Assembly (NCBI GenBank): GCA_045651985.1
Contig: JAZRTK010000010.1
Location: 19,857 to 83,856, forward strand
Source: Eubacteriales bacterium
GTDB taxonomy: Bacteria > Bacillota > Clostridia > Oscillospirales > CAG-272
Direction: 5' to 3'
DNA: 64,000 bases
Shown: positions 7,740 through 35,859 of the stretch, in pieces
How the letters are laid out: each line of letters begins with the position of its first letter
How positions within the stretch are numbered: the first letter of the stretch is position 1
Notes under the pieces: generated by a model
Told to the model about the DNA's origin: nothing
The model's input: the letters and a program-made list of their open reading frames with translations, nothing else
Databases searched by the model: none
Position numbers and translations under genes: made by a program

Positions 7740-7768
7740 TTGACAAAAGGGAAAAAGGATGGTAAAAT
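7740..7768 (+). promoter_or_regulatory. sigma-A type promoter of the T-box/leuA-like operon
   Basis: TTGACA (7740-7745), an exact 17-nt spacer, then TGgTAAAAT (extended -10, 7763-7768). Confidence 0.65.
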
Positions 7769-7785: not shown

Positions 7786-8064
7786 AAGCGTTGAAGAAAT
7801 TATTCGCTTTCCCGAGGGCTACAGAGAGTCGGCGGTTGGTGTGAGCCGATGCGGTAGGTTAAGCGGAGTCTCGTTTCCGAGCTTGATGCCCGAATGAAAA
7901 GTAAGGTGTCACGGTCGCCCCGTTATCGGCTGAGAGCTTAAAGGATTTTACACAGCCGAGAGCTCAAGAGTGATTCCTTGCCGCAAGGCGGGGTTTTAAC
8001 AGGGTGGTACCGCGAAAAAGTATTTTCGTCCCTGAGGCTTTTAGCCTTGGGGACTTTTTGTTTT
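7786..8064 (+). promoter_or_regulatory. T-box riboswitch leader, probable Leu (CUC) specifier, with intrinsic terminator
   Basis: - Stem I base AAGC/GCUU with a K-turn-like GUUGA / CGA.
- AG bulge AGAGAG (7823-7828).
- Distal hairpin UCGGC-GGUUGGUGUGA-GCCGA.
- Specifier loop GAGU-CUC-G, with CUC at 7870-7872.
- T-box motif AACAGGGUGGUACCGCG (7998-8014), where UGGU would pair with tRNA ACCA.
- Terminator stem 8028-8054 followed by a U-run.
- CAGGG (8000-8004) can alternatively pair with CCCUG (8030-8034), which would form the antiterminator. Confidence 0.85.
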
Positions 8065-8105: not shown

Positions 8106-9521
8106 ATGAAACAGATATCAATTACGGATGTAACGATCAAGCAGTCGGGCAGGGGAGCAGGCTATCAGCTGAGCTTTCGCGAAAAGATAGAGCTTGCAAA
8201 GCTTCTCGACCGACTTCACGTTGACACGATTGAATTGAATCCCGTTGAAAATATCAAGGTCGATAGCCTTCTTATAAAATCGGTTTGCTCGGCGGTAAAG
8301 GAAAGCGCGGTTGCTGTTCCCGTTGGCATGGACGAGGGCAATATCGACGCTATCTGGGCATCTATGGGCGAAGCAAAGCACCCGCGTCTTCAGGTACAGC
8401 TTCCCGTAAGTGCCGTTCAGATGGAATACATTGCGGGCAAGAAGCCGGCGGCGATGATAGAGCTTATCGGGGCGCTTGTTTCAAAGTGCAAGGCACTGTG
8501 TTCCGACGTTGAGTTTATCGCCGAGGACGCCACAAGAAGCGATATGCAGTTCCTTTCCGAGGCTATAAAAACGGCAATTTCGGCAGGTGCGGCCACCGTT
8601 ACAGTCTGCGACACCGCCGGAACCTCACTTCCTTCGGAATTTGAGGATTTTATTGAGAACATCACCGCAAACATTCCCGAGCTTTCGGGAGTTAGACTTG
8701 GCGTTTGCTGCTCTGACGCCCTGTCTATGGCAGACGGTTGCGCGGTTGCCTCTATCAAGGGCGGTGCGGTTGAGATCAAGGCGGCAGCTTACGGAGAAAC
8801 GACCGTAAGTCTTGCCAATATCGTAAAGATCCTCTCCGCGAAGGCTGACGTGCTTGACACGGCGACCACCGTCAACGCAACGCAAATAAAGCGTATCACC
8901 GACCAAATCGACTGGATGTGCCGCACCGACCGCTCAAAGAACTCTCCGTTCGACAGCGGAGTTCAGAGCGTGGGCGAGTCGTATCTGAGCGAGCATGACG
9001 ACCTTACCGCTGTTGCAAAAGCGGTGGCTCTTATGGGCTACGAGCTTTCCGACGAGGACAACGTGAAGGTCTTTGAGGCTTTCCAAAAGATCGCCGCAAA
9101 GAAAAAGACGGTAAGCGAAAAGGAGCTTGATGCAATCGTTGCGTCTGCCGCTTTGCAGGTTCCTCCCACATACAAGCTTGACGGATATATGATAAATACG
9201 GGCAACATCATCTCCGCCACCGCACATATAAAAATGGCGGAGGACGGTAAGATGACCGAGGGTATCAGCATCGGAGACGGTCCTATTGACGCGGCGTTCC
9301 TTGCCATTGAGCAGATCGTCGGACGCCACTTCGAGCTTGACGATTTCCAGATTCAGGCTGTTACCGAGGGCAGAGAGGCTATGGGCGAGTCTGTAGTAAA
9401 GCTTCGCAGCTCCGGAAAACTTTATTCGGGCAGAGGAATTTCCACCGACATTATCGGTGCAAGTATCAATGCTTACATCAACGCCTTAAATAAGATCGTT
9501 TACGAAGAAAAAGAGAACTGA
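8106..9521 (+). CDS. LeuA/CimA-family protein (HMGL-like TIM barrel plus LeuA dimerisation/regulatory domain) with degenerate catalytic motifs
   Basis: 471 aa from ATG 8106; the track start at 8004 lies inside the T-box terminator.
- Conserved with LeuA: EFIAEDATRSD, VTVCDTAGTSLP, and the C-terminal LeuA_dimer-like region GDGPIDAAFLAIEQIV...STDIIGASINAYINALNKI.
- LRDGEQ is replaced by VTIKQS.
- HxH(ND) is replaced by CCSD. Confidence 0.8.
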   Translation: MKQISITDVTIKQSGRGAGYQLSFREKIELAKLLDRLHVDTIELNPVENIKVDSLLIKSVCSAVKESAVAVPVGMDEGNIDAIWASMGEAKHPRLQVQLPVSAVQMEYIAGKKPAAMIELIGALVSKCKALCSDVEFIAEDATRSDMQFLSEAIKTAISAGAATVTVCDTAGTSLPSEFEDFIENITANIPELSGVRLGVCCSDALSMADGCAVASIKGGAVEIKAAAYGETTVSLANIVKILSAKADVLDTATTVNATQIKRITDQIDWMCRTDRSKNSPFDSGVQSVGESYLSEHDDLTAVAKAVALMGYELSDEDNVKVFEAFQKIAAKKKTVSEKELDAIVASAALQVPPTYKLDGYMINTGNIISATAHIKMAEDGKMTEGISIGDGPIDAAFLAIEQIVGRHFELDDFQIQAVTEGREAMGESVVKLRSSGKLYSGRGISTDIIGASINAYINALNKIVYEEKEN

Positions 9522-9536: not shown

Positions 9537-12050
9537 ATGAATTTATCCTTTTCAACAAGAGGCTGGCAGGGCTTCAGCTTTGAAGAAAACATAGAGACCG
9601 CGACCCTCATGGGCTTTGGCGGAATTGAAATATATAACGTACAGAAAAGCCCCGAGCTTACCGACCGCGGCGGAGCGTTCCATAAGTATAACACGGCGGC
9701 GACCGTAAGACTTTTGCGCGAGAAAAAGCTCCGTATTCCTTGCTTTGACTCCTCCTGCGATATATCCATAAACGGTTGTATTGACGAAGCAAGAGCACTC
9801 ATGAGTATTGCCCGCGACGCTCAGACCGAGCAGGTGTCGGTGGTTGCGCTGTCCGATAATTTTGATAACATTTACAAAAATCTTGAAACGCTTCTTTCCG
9901 ACGCGGAAAAGCTCAAGATAACCATTCTGGTAAAGACCAGCGGAGTTTTCTCGGACACGGCAAGGTTGCGCGAGCTTCTTGACCGCTTTGCAAGCGATAA
10001 TCTGGCGGCACTTTGGGACCCCACCCATACCTATTTTGACAATAACGAGACCGCCGATACCACCATTAAAAATTTGGGCGCGTACGTGCGCCACGTGCAC
10101 CTGCGCGACTCGCAGGACGGAAAAAATTACACCCTCATCGGCGAGGGGACTCTGCCTACGGCCGAGGTTATGCAGGCACTTGGCTCGGTAGACTATGACG
10201 GATTTATCTCTGCCGAGTGGAAGCCCCAATGGATGGAAGATATTGACGACAGGGAGATAATTTTCCCCTATTTTGTCAACTACATGAACCGCTTCGATTC
10301 CCCTCGCGGAAAGAAAAAGACGCTTTATGACAACAAGACCCACACAGGCCAGTTCGTCTGGAAAAAGGACGAACTTATCACCGAGACCTTCCCACAGGTG
10401 CTTGATCGCATGGTTGAGGAATTCCCCGACCAGTACGCCTTCAAATACACGACACTTGACTATACCAGAACCTACAGCGAGTTCCGCGATGACGTTGACA
10501 ATTTTGCCCGCGCGCTGGTTTCTCTGGGCGTAAAGCGCGGAAGTAAGGTGGCGATTTGGGCTACAAACGTGCCCGCATGGTATATAACGTTCTGGGCGAC
10601 CACAAAGATCGGTGCGGTGTTGGTTACCGTGAACACGGCGTATAAAATTCACGAGGCAGAGTACCTGCTTCGTCAGTCGGATACTCATACTCTTGTAATG
10701 ATCGAAAACTGCCTTGATTCCGACTATCGCGGCATCATAAACGAGCTTTGCCCCGAACTTAAAGACACGAAGCCCGGTCAGCCTCTTCATTGCAGAAAGC
10801 TGCCTTTCCTGCGTAACGTAATTACCGTTGGATATAAGGAAAAGGGCTGCCTTGAATTCAATGAAGCTATGGACCGAGCGGACATGGTTCCCCTTGAGCA
10901 GGTGAACCGCATGGCATCTCAGGTACGCTCGGACGACGTGTGCAATATGCAGTACACGTCTGGAACGACCGGCTTTCCCAAGGGCGTAATGCTAACCCAC
11001 TATAACGTAGTAAACAACGGCAAATGTATCGGCGACCGCATGGACCTTTCCACAGCCGACCGCATGATGATACAGGTGCCTATGTTCCATTGCTTTGGAA
11101 TGGTGCTCTCCATGACCTCGTCTATGACACACGGTGCTACCATGTGCCCAATGCCTTATTTCTCGGCAAAGGTTTCCTTGGCTTGCATAAATCAGGAGAG
11201 GATCACCTGCTTTAACGGTGTTCCCACCATGTTTATCGCCATGTTCAACCACCCCGACTACAAGAACACCGATTTCTCACACATGAGAACGGGAATCATG
11301 GCAGGCTCGGGCTGCCCGCCTGAACTTATGAAGCGTGCGGCGCAGGACGATGAGATGCACATGACCGATATCGTCAGCGTTTACGGTCAGACCGAGTCTT
11401 CGCCTGGAAGTACCATGAGTGCCTGCGGTGACAGCCTTGAGCTTCGCACCGAGACCGTCGGCTACGCCTTCCCCCACGTTGAATGTAAGATAATCGATCC
11501 CGAAACGGGCGAGGAAGTGGGAGCGGGTGTCAACGGCGAGTTCTGCTCACGCGGTTACAATACGATGAAGGGCTATTATAAGATGCCACAGTCGACAGCG
11601 ACGACAATTGACAGCGAGGGCTGGCTCCATTCGGGCGACCTTGCCATGCGCGACGAGGACGGAAACTACCGTATCACGGGACGCTTAAAGGACATGATAA
11701 TACGCGGCGGCGAGAATATCTACCCCAAGGAAATAGAGGAATTTATCTATACCCATAAAGCTGTCCGCGACGTTCAGGTCATCGGCGTGCCCGACAAGAA
11801 GTACGGCGAGGAGGCAATGGCTTGTATTATCCTCAAGGATGGCGAGAGTTGCACCGTCGAGGAGATGAACGAGTATATCAAGAGCCACATGGCGCGCCAT
11901 AAAGTGCCCAAATATATTGAATTCGTTGACTCCTTCCCCATGAACGCGGCAGGAAAGATACAGAAATATAAGATGCGTGAGGCTGCCATCGAAAGATTGG
12001 GTCTTGCTAACGCGGCAGGCATCGACACTGCAAAAAATAATAATATTTAG
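9537..12050 (+). CDS. fusion protein: N-terminal sugar-phosphate isomerase/epimerase (xylose-isomerase-like TIM barrel) plus C-terminal AMP-forming acyl-CoA ligase
   Basis: 837 aa. Residues ~1-265 resemble AP_endonuc_2/XI-like barrels (GFGGIEIY...VRHVHLRDS...GFISAEW). Residues ~285-837 carry the AMP-binding motifs MQYTSGTTGFPKGVMLTH, YGQTE, GWLHSGDLA and GKIQKYK. The start lies 15 nt after the leuA-like stop. Confidence 0.8.
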   Translation: MNLSFSTRGWQGFSFEENIETATLMGFGGIEIYNVQKSPELTDRGGAFHKYNTAATVRLLREKKLRIPCFDSSCDISINGCIDEARALMSIARDAQTEQVSVVALSDNFDNIYKNLETLLSDAEKLKITILVKTSGVFSDTARLRELLDRFASDNLAALWDPTHTYFDNNETADTTIKNLGAYVRHVHLRDSQDGKNYTLIGEGTLPTAEVMQALGSVDYDGFISAEWKPQWMEDIDDREIIFPYFVNYMNRFDSPRGKKKTLYDNKTHTGQFVWKKDELITETFPQVLDRMVEEFPDQYAFKYTTLDYTRTYSEFRDDVDNFARALVSLGVKRGSKVAIWATNVPAWYITFWATTKIGAVLVTVNTAYKIHEAEYLLRQSDTHTLVMIENCLDSDYRGIINELCPELKDTKPGQPLHCRKLPFLRNVITVGYKEKGCLEFNEAMDRADMVPLEQVNRMASQVRSDDVCNMQYTSGTTGFPKGVMLTHYNVVNNGKCIGDRMDLSTADRMMIQVPMFHCFGMVLSMTSSMTHGATMCPMPYFSAKVSLACINQERITCFNGVPTMFIAMFNHPDYKNTDFSHMRTGIMAGSGCPPELMKRAAQDDEMHMTDIVSVYGQTESSPGSTMSACGDSLELRTETVGYAFPHVECKIIDPETGEEVGAGVNGEFCSRGYNTMKGYYKMPQSTATTIDSEGWLHSGDLAMRDEDGNYRITGRLKDMIIRGGENIYPKEIEEFIYTHKAVRDVQVIGVPDKKYGEEAMACIILKDGESCTVEEMNEYIKSHMARHKVPKYIEFVDSFPMNAAGKIQKYKMREAAIERLGLANAAGIDTAKNNNI

Positions 12051-12055
12051 TTTTA

Positions 12056-12086
12056 AGATCCCCGACCGACCCGTCGGGGATCTTTT
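12056..12086 (+). terminator. rho-independent terminator of the leuA-like/ligase operon
   Basis: An 11-bp stem AGATCCCCGAC/GTCGGGGATCT with a 6-nt loop, followed by TTTT. Confidence 0.8.
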
Positions 12087-12216: not shown

Positions 12217-13449
12217 ATGGAAAACGTAAAAGAAAGATTTTTAAGATATATAAAAATCGACACACAGTCGGAGGAGGGCATTGACCGCTTCCCGAGTACC
12301 GAAAAACAGCTTGACCTTGCAAGACTTCTAAAAAAAGAGCTTTCTGAAATGGGTGCGTCCGACGTTACCCTGGACGAAAACGGCTATCTTTTTGCCACAA
12401 TCCCGGCAACGAGCGACAAAAAGGTACCTACCGTGGGCTTTATTTCCCACATGGACACAGCGCCCGCGTATTCGGGTAAAGGAGTAAGCCCCAAATTCGC
12501 CCCCGATTACAACGGCGGTGAGCTTGTTCTTGACGAAGAAAAGGGGATTACCATGTCTCCCGCCACATTTCCGTCGCTTTTGCACTATGAAGGAAAAGAA
12601 CTGATCTATACAGACGGAAGTACACTTCTCGGTGCTGACGACAAGGCGGGTGTCGCGGAGATCATGACCTTTGCCGAGTACCTGCTGACCCATTCCGAAA
12701 TTGAGCACGGCGAGATAAATATAGGGTTTACTCCCGACGAGGAGGTGGGACGCGGCGCGGATTTCTTTGACGTCGCGCGTTTTGGTGCCGACGTGGCTTA
12801 CACGGTTGACGGCGGTGAGCTGGGCGAGATCGAATACGAGAATTTCAACGCCGCCGCAGGACTTGTGACCGTCCACGGCGCATCAATACACCCCGGCTCT
12901 GCCAAGGGCAAGATGAAGAACGCGATCCTCATCGGTGCGGAATTTGAGTCGCTCTTGCCCGCCTTCGACAAGCCTATGTACACCGAGGGCTACGAGGGAT
13001 TTTTCCACCTTGACAAAATAGAGGGCGACGTGGAAAACTGTCGCATGGAATACATTATCCGCGACCACGACGCAAAGAAATTTGACGAAAAATGCAGACT
13101 TTTTGCGCGTGCGGGCGCGTGGCTGAATGAAAAGTACGGCGAAGGCACACTTGAGATGACCGTCACCGAAAGCTACCGCAATATGCGCGAAATGGTCGAG
13201 CCTCATATGTATCTCATCGACATAGCGAAGAAGGCTATGTTAAATTGCGGTGCCGAGCCCAAGATCGTAGCTATCCGCGGGGGGACCGACGGTGCGAGAC
13301 TTTCGTATATGGGTCTGCCTTGCCCCAATCTTTCAACGGGTGGCGAGAACTTCCACGGAAAGTACGAGTTTATCTGTACACAGTCCATGGAGACAATGGT
13401 TGACGTTCTTGTTGATATTGCAAAGCAGTTCGTTGAAATTAAAAAATAA
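12217..13449 (+). CDS. pepT: peptidase T (tripeptide aminopeptidase, M20B)
   Basis: 410 aa. MENVKERFLRYIKIDTQS...GFISHMDT...LGADDKAGVAEIM...FTPDEEVG... Confidence 0.9.
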   Translation: MENVKERFLRYIKIDTQSEEGIDRFPSTEKQLDLARLLKKELSEMGASDVTLDENGYLFATIPATSDKKVPTVGFISHMDTAPAYSGKGVSPKFAPDYNGGELVLDEEKGITMSPATFPSLLHYEGKELIYTDGSTLLGADDKAGVAEIMTFAEYLLTHSEIEHGEINIGFTPDEEVGRGADFFDVARFGADVAYTVDGGELGEIEYENFNAAAGLVTVHGASIHPGSAKGKMKNAILIGAEFESLLPAFDKPMYTEGYEGFFHLDKIEGDVENCRMEYIIRDHDAKKFDEKCRLFARAGAWLNEKYGEGTLEMTVTESYRNMREMVEPHMYLIDIAKKAMLNCGAEPKIVAIRGGTDGARLSYMGLPCPNLSTGGENFHGKYEFICTQSMETMVDVLVDIAKQFVEIKK

Positions 13450-27268: not shown

Positions 27269-28861
27269 ATGAAGGGCGACGACAAGTTCTGGTCACTTGA
27301 CGAGTTTGCTCCAAGGAAAACTATCTCGCGCCCCCAAAATCGTGACGTTGAAGCGGTTGAGATAAGCTTTGAGAGCGAAGAAAAAATAATTTCAAGTGTC
27401 CGCGAAATGACGTCCGACGGAATTTCAAAGGAAGAAATCCGGATGCGCCCCGACACCACCCTGACAGAACGGATAATTACCGCGATGCCAAGCAAAATCG
27501 TGGAAAGTGCGACACCGGATGAGGAATACGAAAGCGAGCTGCGCTTTATAGGACACGTGAAATTGTTCCACAGGAAGGATTACGGCTATTACGAGAGCTT
27601 CCTTGCAGACGGCAAACGGCTTTTTGATGAGAGCCGAGAGGGCGTTCCTTACTATTCTTATTTTTCCTACGTCCCTCAGTATTCTCAGCTGTCGCTTGGA
27701 CAGCTCGACTGCTATTTTGACCTGCGCCGTCAGATAAGGGCAGGGGGTGCGCCAAAAGCTGAATACAGCTATATTCTGCTCTATATAAGCGAGCTGATAA
27801 ATATTGACCCCGATACTCGGTCCGTGCCGAGAAAGCTTGCCCATCTGTGGCAAAGCTACCGCCGTATATATCCCAAGCTTGACGCGCTTATCCCCGAATG
27901 GATAACGGATTACTGTCTTCTTACCCGCACCATGCCGCCAAAGGGACTGAATAGCGAGCTTGAAGAATATATTTTCACCCATGCGTCACTTCGCGAGCTG
28001 TTCTTTTCGGGCAAGGACGATGACGTGAAAAAGCTGGTGGATTCAGGGGCTTACACCACCTACGATTACAGAAAAAGCAAGTTTGCAACCCAAGAAAACC
28101 TGCCTATTTTTGAGCAGATAATCCCCGCTGTTGTTGCCGTTACCTTGCGCCGTCTGGGAAGTGAGGGTAAGCTTCGATACGGCACGGGTAAGCTGAACCG
28201 CGATATGTTTACGGGTCTGCTCTGTACTCCTGCCAGAAAGTGCCGCGTTGAGGTGGACTATATTTCACTTTCCCGCTCCCACGAGGTGCGATATATCGTC
28301 ACCGACGCAGTAAAGCACGCGGAGAACAGGATACGCGCTTATCTTGGAATAAAATCCCGCCTGACTGTTTACAGCCTGCCCGCAGAGGATAGAAAAATAA
28401 TAGATTCTATGGTCACGGAAATGCTTGGCGGTGAGAAAAAGCCAAAGGCGGAGGAAGAAAAAACGGAATATTCTCACCTTTACGAGCTTCCAAAGCACGA
28501 ATTTTCGCTTGATATGGCAAAGAAGATAGAGGAGGAATCCTGGCAGACCACCGAACGCCTCATCGAAGCATTTGAGGAGAAAACGATTGAGGTTGCTCCC
28601 GCCGTGATATTCGAGACGACGGCGGAGGAAGGAGACCTTACTGTCGCCCTTTCCGAATATATTGATTTCGTCCGAGCAGCTCGGGATGGAGACTTTTACT
28701 CGCAACGCGCATTTGCCGACGCACGGGGACTGCTCGTGGGCTCTGTCGCCGACCGAATAAACGAAATTTCCGCCGACATTCTCGGAGATATTCTGCTTGA
28801 GGAATGTCCCTCGGGCTACAAAATAATTGATGATTACGCACAGGAGTTAAAAGATGTCTGA
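27269..28861 (+). CDS. TerB-N / TerB-C domain protein (Shango SngA-like)
   Basis: 530 aa with SD GAGGAGGTG. Residues ~125-180, YYSYFSYVPQYSQLSLGQLDCYFDLRRQIRAGGAPKAEYSYILLYISELINI, match the TerB_N signature as I remember it (aromatic-rich, YxxM/LxxxQ, Y/W-R, SYxFLYxYELIN). The C-terminal ~120 aa (LDMAKKIEEESWQTTERL...INEISADILGDILLEE...IIDDY) is TerB_C-like. No TM segment or signal peptide is present. Confidence 0.7.
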   Translation: MKGDDKFWSLDEFAPRKTISRPQNRDVEAVEISFESEEKIISSVREMTSDGISKEEIRMRPDTTLTERIITAMPSKIVESATPDEEYESELRFIGHVKLFHRKDYGYYESFLADGKRLFDESREGVPYYSYFSYVPQYSQLSLGQLDCYFDLRRQIRAGGAPKAEYSYILLYISELINIDPDTRSVPRKLAHLWQSYRRIYPKLDALIPEWITDYCLLTRTMPPKGLNSELEEYIFTHASLRELFFSGKDDDVKKLVDSGAYTTYDYRKSKFATQENLPIFEQIIPAVVAVTLRRLGSEGKLRYGTGKLNRDMFTGLLCTPARKCRVEVDYISLSRSHEVRYIVTDAVKHAENRIRAYLGIKSRLTVYSLPAEDRKIIDSMVTEMLGGEKKPKAEEEKTEYSHLYELPKHEFSLDMAKKIEEESWQTTERLIEAFEEKTIEVAPAVIFETTAEEGDLTVALSEYIDFVRAARDGDFYSQRAFADARGLLVGSVADRINEISADILGDILLEECPSGYKIIDDYAQELKDV

Positions 28862-30221
28862 CATCATTTCGCAAAAGATACCCAAAAGAATACTTTCATC
28901 TCTGCTTGCGTCGGTCTCGGCGGGAGTAGTGCCGCGAAGCGGTGCGCCATATATTGCTATCGGCCGCCGAGACGAGATAGAAGCGTTGCTCTCCGACCTT
29001 GAGGAAACGGGCGAGGGCGGCTCAAGAATGAGATTTCTCATTGGACGATACGGAAGTGGTAAGAGCTTTCTTATCCAGCTTATCCGAGGCTACGCTCTGG
29101 AGCGCAATTTTATTACCGCCGATGCGGACCTGTCCCCCGAGCGCCGTCTGTACGGCAGTAACGGGTCTGGAATTGCCACCTACCGTGAGCTTATAAAAAA
29201 TCTTGCCTCGAAGACCTCGCCCGACGGCGGAGCTTTGTCAAAGCTTGTCACCCGTTGGATAGACGATATCCGTGCAGCTCTCGTAAGGGAGGGATATTCG
29301 CTGTCCGACCCCGCGCTTGATACGGCGCTTGAAGCTCGTGTTTATGAGGAGATGCGCAGTATTGAAGGACTTGTGGGCGGTTTTGATTTCGCGCGTATCA
29401 TGGTTGAATTCTACCGAGCTTACGTCTTGGGTGACGAGGACAAAAAGTCTGCTTGTATGCGTTGGCTGAGAGGTGAGTACGCCACAAAGACTGAGGCACA
29501 GTGTGCCCTACGTTTCCGCGTTTCACTTATTATAGATGATGATAACTGGTACGATTTTATAAAGATCTGGGCGTCTCTTGTGCGCAAAATGGGATACCGC
29601 GGACTAGTTGTCTTTATAGACGAGTGCGTTAACCTTTATAAGATAACCCACCGCGTGTCCCGCGAAAACAACTACGAAAAGATACTTTCAATGTTCAATG
29701 ACACCCTGCAGGGACGTGCCGAGGGACTTGACATCATCATGGGCGGTACTCCTCAATTTCTGGAGGACACCCGCCGAGGACTGTTTTCATACGAGGCGCT
29801 GAAAAGCCGTCTTTGCGACAGCAGATTTGCAGGAAGTGAATTTAAAAATCTTATCGGTCCCGTCATCCGACTGCGACGACTGTCCGACGAGGAGCTTTTT
29901 GCGCTCATAGGCAGGATAACGAAGCTTTACGCGCAAAATTACGGATGTGAGCCGAGGATTTCCGAGGAGCAGATGCAGAAGTTTTTGTCAATTTGCCTTG
30001 ACCGCGCGGGCGCGGATATGATGATAACCCCCCGTGAGATGCTCCGAGACTACATGACGGTGCTCAATATCCTTATGCAGAACGAGAACGCTACATTTGA
30101 GCAGATTATCGGCGAGACCGCGGTGGGGGGAGCAAGCCCTGCACCGACGCAGGAAAAGAAAGAAGAAACGGTGCCTGCGCCCCGCACCCCCGATTTCAAC
30201 CCCGAAGATATAGAATTTTAA
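28854..30221 (+). CDS. DUF2791 / BrxC-BrxD-family P-loop ATPase (Shango SngB-like)
   Basis: 455 aa. Walker A is GRYGSGKS (aa 64-71) and Walker B is LVVFIDE (aa 251-257). The N-terminal LSSLLASVSAGVVPRSGAPYIAIGRRDEIEAL and the TPREMLRDYMTVLNIL tail are typical of DUF2791 proteins. The ATG overlaps the upstream stop by 8 nt. Confidence 0.72.
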   Translation: MSDIISQKIPKRILSSLLASVSAGVVPRSGAPYIAIGRRDEIEALLSDLEETGEGGSRMRFLIGRYGSGKSFLIQLIRGYALERNFITADADLSPERRLYGSNGSGIATYRELIKNLASKTSPDGGALSKLVTRWIDDIRAALVREGYSLSDPALDTALEARVYEEMRSIEGLVGGFDFARIMVEFYRAYVLGDEDKKSACMRWLRGEYATKTEAQCALRFRVSLIIDDDNWYDFIKIWASLVRKMGYRGLVVFIDECVNLYKITHRVSRENNYEKILSMFNDTLQGRAEGLDIIMGGTPQFLEDTRRGLFSYEALKSRLCDSRFAGSEFKNLIGPVIRLRRLSDEELFALIGRITKLYAQNYGCEPRISEEQMQKFLSICLDRAGADMMITPREMLRDYMTVLNILMQNENATFEQIIGETAVGGASPAPTQEKKEETVPAPRTPDFNPEDIEF

Positions 30222-35783: not shown

Positions 35784-35859
35784 TGGTGCTCCATTGCGGA
35801 ATCGAACCGCAGACACCTTGATTAAAAGTCAAGTGCTCTACCGGCTGAGCTAATGGGGC
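35784..35859 (-). tRNA. tRNA-Lys (anticodon UUU), CCA encoded
   Basis: Reverse complement: GCCCCAT-TA-GCTC-AGCCGGTA-GAGC-A-CTTGA-CTTTTAA-TCAAG-GTGTC-TGCGG-TTCGATT-CCGCA-ATGGAGC-A-CCA. The cloverleaf was folded by hand. There is one C3:A70 mismatch in the acceptor stem. Confidence 0.9.

Follow-up and report, generated by a model that had tools for sequence, protein, structure and literature searches.

A LeuA-derived pseudo-enzyme encoded with an acyl-CoA ligase behind a predicted leucine T-box: a candidate leucine-sensing subunit for branched-acid activation

Introduction

The locus described here raises the question of what a relative of 2-isopropylmalate synthase (LeuA) does for the cell once its catalytic residues have gone. 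The window, by which we mean the whole stretch of 64,000 nucleotides analysed (contig JAZRTK010000010.1 of the Eubacteriales bacterium assembly GCA_045651985.1, positions 19,857 to 83,856), contains such a relative, here called gene A. It is followed on the same strand by gene B, which encodes a triosephosphate-isomerase-type (TIM) barrel fused to an adenosine monophosphate (AMP)-forming acyl-coenzyme A (acyl-CoA) ligase. A first-pass annotation of the sequence had proposed that gene A is not a synthase and may instead be a leucine-responsive regulatory subunit or scaffold for the ligase fusion. Our analysis strongly supports the first of these proposals. It also points, with modest confidence, to gene A as a leucine-sensing, non-catalytic partner of gene B, which would be an isovalerate-CoA ligase feeding a route from branched acids to amino acids.

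It has been clear from labelling experiments for decades that rumen and gut anaerobes rely on isovalerate, isobutyrate and 2-methylbutyrate to make amino acids. The genes involved and their control are poorly defined, most of all in the uncultured Oscillospiraceae, Faecousia, Acutalibacteraceae and Christensenellales.

Results

The catalytic domain of gene A was aligned with HMMER to the solved LeuA catalytic domains 3ewb, 3rmj, 3eeg and 6e1j, and all four alignments were concordant, with high posterior probability, on the catalytic positions. In the N-terminal motif (Table 1), the substrate Arg is replaced by K12, the metal-binding Asp by Q13 and the Glu by G15, and the first Asp is kept as D8. 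The first-pass annotation, which gave this segment as TDVTIKQS in place of DTTLRDGEQ, had correctly read the loss of the Arg and the metal Asp but stood one residue out of register, and the first Asp survives. Its reading of the HCH(N/D)D motif as CCSDA is borne out by the four alignments: both His metal ligands are gone, the segment running C201-C-S203-D-A.

Two further losses are deletions, seen in a MAFFT alignment with P0257 and P0265, canonical LeuAs recovered in the same cluster search as the gene A family. One removes four residues of the GIGERAGN loop. The other removes about 28 residues comprising the (F)xHESGIHQDG block, which had also been reported as missing, and with it accessory subdomain I. 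The accessory domain of isopropylmalate synthases is essential for catalysis, with His379 and Tyr410 (M. tuberculosis numbering) located in its subdomain I (PMC9860122). Having lost the substrate Arg, the metal ligands, the Glu of the DRE motif, the GIGERAGN loop and subdomain I, gene A is strongly supported as a pseudo-enzyme derived from bacterial (type I) 2-isopropylmalate synthase, and is predicted to be incapable of Claisen condensation.

What remains of the protein is clearly of LeuA descent. The HMGL-like barrel (PF00682) covers residues 4-265 at 100 bits, and the segments EFIAEDATRSD and VTVCDTAGTSLP, on which the homology of the barrel had been argued, are both present as described. 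The C-terminal LeuA_dimer domain, previously judged intact, is matched over nearly the full length of its profile (Table 1). The best NCBIfam models are those of bacterial LeuA, with 304 bits against a cut-off of 532 (NF002086) and 272 bits against 598.7 (TIGR00973), whereas the CimA and NifV models score 51 and 70 bits. Gene A lies far under the curated cut-off of all LeuA, CimA, NifV and homocitrate-synthase equivalogs in NCBIfam. These sub-threshold scores and the family-wide loss of the canonical catalytic elements described below give strong support to the earlier view that the protein is not a synthase.

The start of gene A is assigned to the ATG at 8106, which is preceded by the ribosome-binding site AAGGTGG, and the stop codon occupies 9519-9521. 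The mechanically longest open reading frame, which begins at a GTG at 8004, was rejected as that codon lies inside the T-box leader described below. Some gene callers seem to carry the N-terminus too far, into the riboswitch, to judge from P0270, a 501-residue member of the cluster of P0005. The window protein itself had no exact entry in the contig collection, and its orthologues P0014 and P0083 were used in its place for look-ups. The first-pass annotation had forecast that automatic pipelines would call the protein a 2-isopropylmalate synthase. One JGI/IMG record does give a family member that name, but the NCBI names seen for the family are 'hypothetical protein' and 'alpha-isopropylmalate synthase regulatory domain-containing protein'.

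The losses seen in gene A are those of a whole family. A HMMER search of 1.84 billion cluster representatives returned 380 clusters (50% identity) that matched with E<1e-30. Of the full-length clusters listed (453-497 residues), about 105 share the architecture of gene A down to approximately 35% identity, and canonical LeuAs turn up only at 31-34% identity to it. In a residue table of 107 representatives of 50%-identity clusters, the aligned H-x-H segment holds that motif in none (0/107), and the Arg-Asp pair of the N-terminal motif is found in three. The position of the metal Asp varies freely (E in 17, Q in 14, K in 10, a gap in nine, and L, S, D and N in eight each). The substrate-contacting Glu140 of the 'EDA' segment is L, I or V in 47 of the 107 representatives, and the Thr of 'PDTVG' is variable. 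Elsewhere in the barrel F24, Y108, K113 and D141 are invariant, and D8, T10, E26, R144 and D169 are nearly so.

The regulatory domain behaves differently. Its loop G-[DN]-G-P-x-D-A, which reads G-D-G-P-I-D-A in gene A (residues 390-396), is near-invariant in the same table (G in 106, G in 106, P in 99, D in 100 and A in 99 of the 107), as are T420, G422, G442, G444, D448, Y457 and N462. Mean pairwise identity within the family is 0.565 for the regulatory domain versus 0.327 for the barrel, and the regulatory domain is the more conserved of the two in 98% of 5671 pairs. Canonical LeuA has the opposite pattern (regulatory domain 0.33, barrel 0.47), with one canonical pair only as comparator. A barrel kept as structure, an active site left to drift and an allosteric domain under the strongest constraint are together the signature of a pseudo-enzyme whose working part would be its former regulatory domain.

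In keeping with a preserved structure, the AlphaFold2 model of gene A has a predicted local distance difference test score (pLDDT) of 89.5, and confidence is low only at residues 276-289. Superposed with Foldseek, its barrel fits the Listeria LeuA 3ewb with a root-mean-square deviation of 1.5 Å and a target-normalised TM-score of 0.94. The fold is thus intact while the residues of the metal site are replaced. The full-length matches include leucine-bound M. tuberculosis LeuA (3fig), and the top match is 6e1j. When the regulatory domain was searched by sequence against the PDB on its own, the matches were only marginal (6e1j, E=0.04; 3f6g, E=0.9), and the assignment of this domain rests on Pfam, Foldseek and motif conservation.

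When one genome per species was scanned, relatives of gene A were recovered in at least 593 genomes, and intact open reading frames of this type are present in these relatives. A decaying pseudogene was considered and rejected, given intact frames in hundreds of species and the strong conservation of the C-terminal domain. The orthologues available with DNA share at most 67% protein identity, so that their synonymous sites are saturated. Four LeuA-like proteins of about 500 residues (P0240, P0255, P0261 and P0268) keep H-x-H-like or GIGERAGN segments and subdomain I, and their N-terminal motifs are partly degenerate (DTTLRDGGR, DSTLCEGER, DTTLCDGEQ); they may mark intermediate stages in the degeneration of LeuA or separate instances of it.

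The partner of gene A in this locus is gene B, which begins 15 nt after it. The TIM barrel of its product spans residues 24-230 and the ligase residues 290-807. The NCBIfam model that fits the product best, PRK12583 for a family of fatty-acid CoA ligases, gives 699 bits, short of its cut-off of 832. Linkage between the two genes was assessed in a set of 83 loci, composed of the best 80 of the loci from the at least 593 genomes and three loci from metagenome contigs. Gene B follows gene A on the same strand in every one of the 83, and the stop codon of A overlaps the start of B in 60, as ATGA in 51. Such an overlap is typical of subunits made in fixed proportion and predicts translational coupling in most species. 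The proposed link between the LeuA relative and the downstream ligase fusion, with the degenerate motifs alongside it, is therefore kept across the family and strongly supported.

The TIM domain of B (window 9606-10226) has a peculiarity of its own. Lys133 stands at the position of the first metal-binding and catalytic Glu of tagatose-epimerase/MJ1311-type barrels, and among 66 orthologues 52 have Lys here, 13 have Glu and one has Tyr. The other ligand positions (D161, H164, H188, D191 and E227) are conserved in the same orthologues. The domain could be a second, partly degenerate barrel in the operon.

The connection to leucine comes from a T-box leader, which the first-pass annotation had not seen. 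A predicted promoter lies directly upstream of the leader, and the specifier codon is followed by a purine (CUC-G, 7870-7873). The UGGU bulge at 8005-8008 would pair with a tRNA 3' end ACCA, that is, with a discriminator base A. tRNA-Leu has A73, which fits. The automatic specifier picker sometimes took an upstream, false 'GAGC' site, which in the window yielded GGT, and such cases were settled with the Rfam alignment and the full list of candidates. A T-box is found directly upstream of A in about 62 of the 83 loci, and the automatic pick was CUG, CUC or CUA in 48 of these 62. In nine of the other 14 (the window, L015, L017, L018, L028, L057, L063, L069 and L082), CUC or CUG was an alternative candidate. 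Across orthologous leaders only the CUN register is conserved, and the -1 and +1 registers are not. The leucine connection through the T-box is strongly supported by these comparisons, and genes A and B are predicted to form a two-gene operon switched on by uncharged tRNA-Leu, so that both proteins would be made when leucine is short.

The best 80 loci come almost entirely from metagenome-assembled genomes (MAGs) of uncultured gut and rumen bacteria. The carriers are Faecousia, other Oscillospiraceae, Acutalibacteraceae and Christensenellales, with some Lachnospiraceae and a few genomes labelled Eggerthellaceae or Synergistaceae. Flanks of at least 9 kb on either side are available for 35 loci, and 28 of these contain a second ligase (ligase2), an iron-sulphur (Fe-S) ferredoxin, a VorB-type 2-oxoacid:ferredoxin oxidoreductase (VOR) with its alpha, beta and gamma subunits, and IlvE. 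In fuller form, this second gene set comprises one or two fusions of a helix-turn-helix (HTH) domain, a cupin and an AMP ligase, a P-loop ATPase, a 2x[4Fe-4S] ferredoxin, the three VOR subunits and IlvE. VorB scores 557 bits against a cut-off of 399 and IlvE 487 against 307 (NCBIfam), and the best NCBIfam match of ligase2 is MbcS, a branched short-chain acyl-CoA synthetase (NF047394). T-box specifiers upstream of ligase2 are Ile (AUC) in 41 cases and Val (GUA or GUC) in 14, and the few 'GGC' or 'GGT' calls are probably the same artefact of the picker. With Ile and Val T-boxes on the copies of ligase2 and a Leu T-box on A–B, each branched-chain amino acid has a ligase to itself, predicted to be induced when that amino acid runs short.

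The branched-chain ligases are built of HTH_19, Cupin_2 and an MbcS-like AMP ligase (L001:3020-5284, with equivalents in most of L002-L082, for example L010, L019 and L022). Two copies are frequent, with an Ile (AUC) T-box in front of one and a Val (GUA/GUC) T-box in front of the other. Their HTH-cupin module may be a sensor of the ligases' own, parallel to the pseudo-LeuA of the leucine ligase. Between the ligase and the ferredoxin and VOR genes there is a conserved CbiA/ParA/Mrp-like P-loop ATPase (L001:5294-5953 and equivalents), which may be a factor that delivers Fe-S clusters to VOR. A gene with an Amidohydro_2 domain and no NCBIfam match lies directly after the TIM-ligase gene in L001:13942-14736, L026, L031, L070, L072, L079 and L081, about 2.5 kb downstream of the end of gene A.

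The A–B pair also occurs in MAGs assigned outside the Firmicutes, namely L050, L066, L067 and L083 (Eggerthellaceae/Senegalimassilia), L055 (Synergistaceae), L043 (Abditibacteriota) and L064 (Salinivirgaceae). The T-box motif is absent upstream in L064 and in L043, the latter with only about 70 nt of upstream sequence, and L055 has a Leu (CUC) T-box. Either horizontal transfer accompanied by altered regulation or binning errors could account for these occurrences.

Discussion

On balance, we favour the reading in which gene A is a leucine-sensing, non-catalytic partner of gene B, and gene B an isovalerate-CoA ligase at the head of a route from branched acids to amino acids. Gene B would convert isovalerate to isovaleryl-CoA, the VorB-type oxidoreductase would carboxylate this reductively to 2-oxoisocaproate, and IlvE would transaminate the latter to leucine. 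The product of gene A would join that of gene B as a dimeric, non-catalytic subunit, and its allosteric domain would sense free leucine and throttle the ATP-consuming committed step, thereby reproducing the feedback that true LeuA exerts on the isopropylmalate pathway. Rumen microbes are known to form leucine by carboxylating isovalerate and then aminating the product (PMC7356843). The purified MbcS enzyme accepts 2-methylbutyrate and isobutyrate as substrates but acts poorly on isovalerate (PMC10026030), which leaves room for a dedicated isovalerate ligase under leucine control such as gene B. A role of gene A as a leucine-responsive regulatory subunit is consistent with a family in which constraint has moved away from the barrel and onto the regulatory domain, and would be the most economical role given the anatomy of the protein.

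Several observations weigh against this reading or limit its reach. The complex of A and B, leucine binding by A, the effect of A on B and the sign of that regulation are all steps that we infer. Likewise, we infer isovalerate as the substrate of B only from its regulation and the pattern of its paralogues, and B scores under the cut-off of every NCBIfam equivalog. The TIM domain of B could itself be the real regulator. The conservation of the G-[DN]-G-P-x-D-A loop is shared with ordinary LeuAs and is hence no proof of specificity for leucine. In roughly one locus in four, no T-box can be recognised immediately before gene A, and the motif is absent upstream in the Eggerthellaceae loci. In some loci A–B stands at the end of the VOR-IlvE operon, and in five it follows directly after IlvE in one operon. 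Finally, VOR and IlvE lie outside this 64-kb window, and the full pathway is seen only in related loci.

Of the alternatives, the one that survives best is that gene A supports the ligase structurally or activates it without any sensing of leucine. It would then be a scaffold, an assembly factor, an activator comparable to MbtH or a tether to VOR for channelling, and LeuA_dimer would serve dimerisation only. The strict adjacency and the translational coupling indicate partnership, not sensing. LeuA_dimer is described in Pfam as a dimerisation domain too, and the T-box already places expression under leucine control. On the other hand, the regulatory domain is far more conserved than the barrel (0.565 versus 0.327), and the G-x-G-P-x-D-A segment, which aligns with the ligand loop, is near-invariant; by our reasoning, such constraint exceeds what a dimer interface usually needs. 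We therefore regard this alternative as unlikely, if still worth serious attention.

Two further alternatives are each improbable. In the first, gene A would remain a non-catalytic partner and the isovaleryl-CoA made by A–B would mainly prime iso-odd branched-chain fatty acids when leucine is scarce. MbcS-type ligases do so in S. aureus (PMC10026030), and VOR and IlvE are absent from the window. However, the switch reads the charging of tRNA-Leu, which reports the demand of protein synthesis, and most related loci embed A–B with VOR and IlvE and with genes under Ile and Val T-boxes.

In the second, to which we would likewise assign little weight, gene A would be a neo-functionalised enzyme or ligand binder whose barrel, with or without the TIM domain of B, binds or transforms 2-oxoisocaproate or isovaleryl-AMP/CoA independently of a metal. 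The barrel fold is indeed kept with F24, Y108, K113 and D141 invariant, and the TIM domain of B retains D161, H164, H188, D191 and E227. Nevertheless, the canonical active-site positions vary freely and no alternative constellation of conserved polar residues is seen there. The barrel is the least constrained part of the protein, and subdomain I, which caps the active site and the acetyl-CoA, is deleted. The route from isovalerate to leucine requires no enzyme beyond those named above, and gene A and the TIM domain of B are therefore best regarded as accessories. That gene A might still function as a 2-isopropylmalate or citramalate synthase, with its catalytic residues at shifted positions, can be set aside as next to impossible despite its full-length homology to LeuA and the one IMG name '2-isopropylmalate synthase'. 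The four concordant alignments place non-catalytic residues at the catalytic positions, H-x-H is absent from the aligned segment throughout the family (0/107) and the Arg-Asp pair is rare (3/107), subdomain I is deleted, and the equivalog scores are about half of their cut-offs or less.

If gene A is indeed the leucine-sensing partner of gene B, a wider picture may be sketched, which we offer tentatively and hold to be rather doubtful as a whole. A–B would be the leucine arm of a three-armed system partitioned by T-boxes, in which separate ligases for Leu, Ile and Val draw on a common VOR and IlvE. With this system, many uncultured Oscillospirales and Christensenellales of the gut and rumen would turn the branched short-chain fatty acids of neighbouring organisms into branched-chain amino acids, and it would possibly replace the isopropylmalate pathway. 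The dead LeuA would then be a fossil of that pathway, recycled as a leucine-gated subunit of the ligase.

Several known systems offer points of comparison. Type I LeuA (TIGR00973/PRK00915, DRE-TIM metallolyase superfamily) shares with gene A the TIM barrel, the helices of accessory subdomain II and the LeuA_dimer domain. Gene A differs from it in being about 45 residues shorter, in its inverted pattern of conservation and, in the loci examined, in lying always beside the TIM-ligase fusion and never beside leuBCD. HisZ is a catalytically dead paralogue of histidyl-tRNA synthetase that serves as the histidine-sensing subunit of the short form of HisG, the ATP phosphoribosyltransferase. We propose, by analogy, that gene A may likewise be a dead paralogue that keeps its recognition of an amino acid and has become the allosteric subunit of a committed step; as in such a case, the gene A family is without catalytic residues yet under purifying selection. 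HisZ belongs to an unrelated fold and family, however, and the regulated partner of gene A would be an acyl-CoA ligase.

Methylthioalkylmalate synthase and those plant isopropylmalate synthase isoforms that lost the regulatory domain, a group represented by the top Foldseek match 6e1j, are likewise derived from LeuA and discarded one module on recruitment to a new role. Methylthioalkylmalate synthase is the mirror image of gene A, having kept catalysis and lost the allosteric domain, where gene A has done the reverse. The ilv-leu operon of Bacillus is controlled by a T-box and includes a feedback-inhibited LeuA. It thus resembles the system proposed here in its two tiers, with a tRNA-Leu T-box for expression and a LeuA-type allosteric domain for fast feedback. 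The difference is that here the same logic would sit on a salvage route by reductive carboxylation, with the sensor detached from catalysis. MbcS of S. aureus (NF047394; PMC10026030) is the best model for the Ile and Val ligases and a functional analogy for gene B, which differs in belonging to another subfamily of AMP ligases (PRK12583-like), in its 25% identity to ligase2, in its N-terminal TIM domain and in its pseudo-LeuA partner.

A search of the full-text literature, which offers weak evidence as most subscription papers lay outside it, returned no description of the gene A family, of the TIM-ligase fusion or of the T-box-controlled clusters of ligases and VOR. What is new here is the non-catalytic state of the protein and its partnership; the LeuA family, its fold and its domains are known.

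The type of locus described here, with three ligases that each have their own T-box together with VOR and IlvE, provides a testable genetic definition of the route by which branched acids are used. If the proposed role of gene A is true, it would be a clear bacterial case in which a pseudo-enzyme has found new use as a metabolite sensor for another class of enzyme, and a leucine-gated dead LeuA on a ligase would be a form of control of an adenylating enzyme without described precedent. It would also correct mis-annotations that inflate the leucine prototrophy predicted in metagenome-based metabolic models, and would explain cross-feeding dependencies that may hinder the cultivation of the taxa that carry it.

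Features of the window

The features of the A–B operon and the gene that follows it are collected in Table 1.

Table 1. Coordinates, in window positions, of genes A and B, their signals and domains, and the adjacent gene pepT.
Feature	Position	Strand	Basis
Sigma-70-type promoter, TTGACA-17 nt-TAAAAT, extended -10 TG	7740..7768	+	Consensus scan, 11/12; pattern match only
T-box leader RNA, RF00230	7782..8036	+	Infernal, 104.4 bits (gathering 93), full model 1-219
Specifier codon CUC (Leu), Stem I specifier loop GAGU-CUC-G	7870..7872	+	Rfam alignment; alignment of five T-boxes
T-box sequence GGGUGGUACCGCG	8002..8014	+	Sequence; Rfam alignment; motif search
Intrinsic terminator of the leader (8028-8054 with a T-run), 12-bp stem with 7 G-C pairs	8028..8064	+	Terminator scan; overlaps 3' end of Rfam match
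Gene A, 471-residue LeuA-derived predicted pseudo-enzyme	8106..9521	+	Open reading frame; Pfam; NCBIfam; alignments; AlphaFold model
Degenerate DRE motif, residues 8-16, DVTIKQSGR (canonical DTTLRDGEQ)	8127..8153	+	PDB alignments; family residue table
Degenerate metal-ligand motif, residues 201-205, CCSDA (canonical HCH(D/N)D)	8706..8720	+	PDB alignments; family residue table
Short disordered linker, residues 276-289, replacing accessory subdomain I (HESGIHQDG block)	8931..8972	+	Deletion; pLDDT <50 (AlphaFold)
LeuA_dimer allosteric domain, PF08502, residues 336-464	9111..9497	+	Pfam, 114.7 bits, profile positions 2-130 of 131
Gene B, 837-residue fusion of xylose-isomerase-like TIM barrel and AMP-forming acyl-CoA ligase	9537..12050	+	Pfam AP_endonuc_2, AMP-binding, AMP-binding_C
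Intrinsic terminator ending the operon, 12-bp stem with 7 G-C pairs, T-rich tail	12055..12084	+	Terminator scan
pepT	12217-13449		Own promoter-like sites

Of the set of ligase, VOR and IlvE, the window holds the ligase only, whereas 28 of the 35 related loci with long flanks hold all of it. VOR, IlvE, ligase2, ilv genes and a canonical leuA were looked for elsewhere in the 64 kb and none were found. The flanks of the operon are unrelated housekeeping genes, with tsaE, tsaB, rpiB, ispD, ispF and rpe upstream on the other strand, and pepT and others downstream.

In locus L001, a ZMP/ZTP riboswitch (48.4 bits, L001:2444-2526, minus strand) lies upstream of the purine-biosynthesis genes AIRC, GATase and AIRS, next to the branched-chain cluster. 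The window itself contains an adjacent pair comprising a TerB_N/TerB_C protein and an ATPase of the BrxC/BrxD family (513 bits to PF10923) at 27269-30221, which resembles a small defence-like module set among housekeeping genes. Its sole tRNA gene is a tRNA-Lys(UUU) at 35784-35859 on the minus strand.

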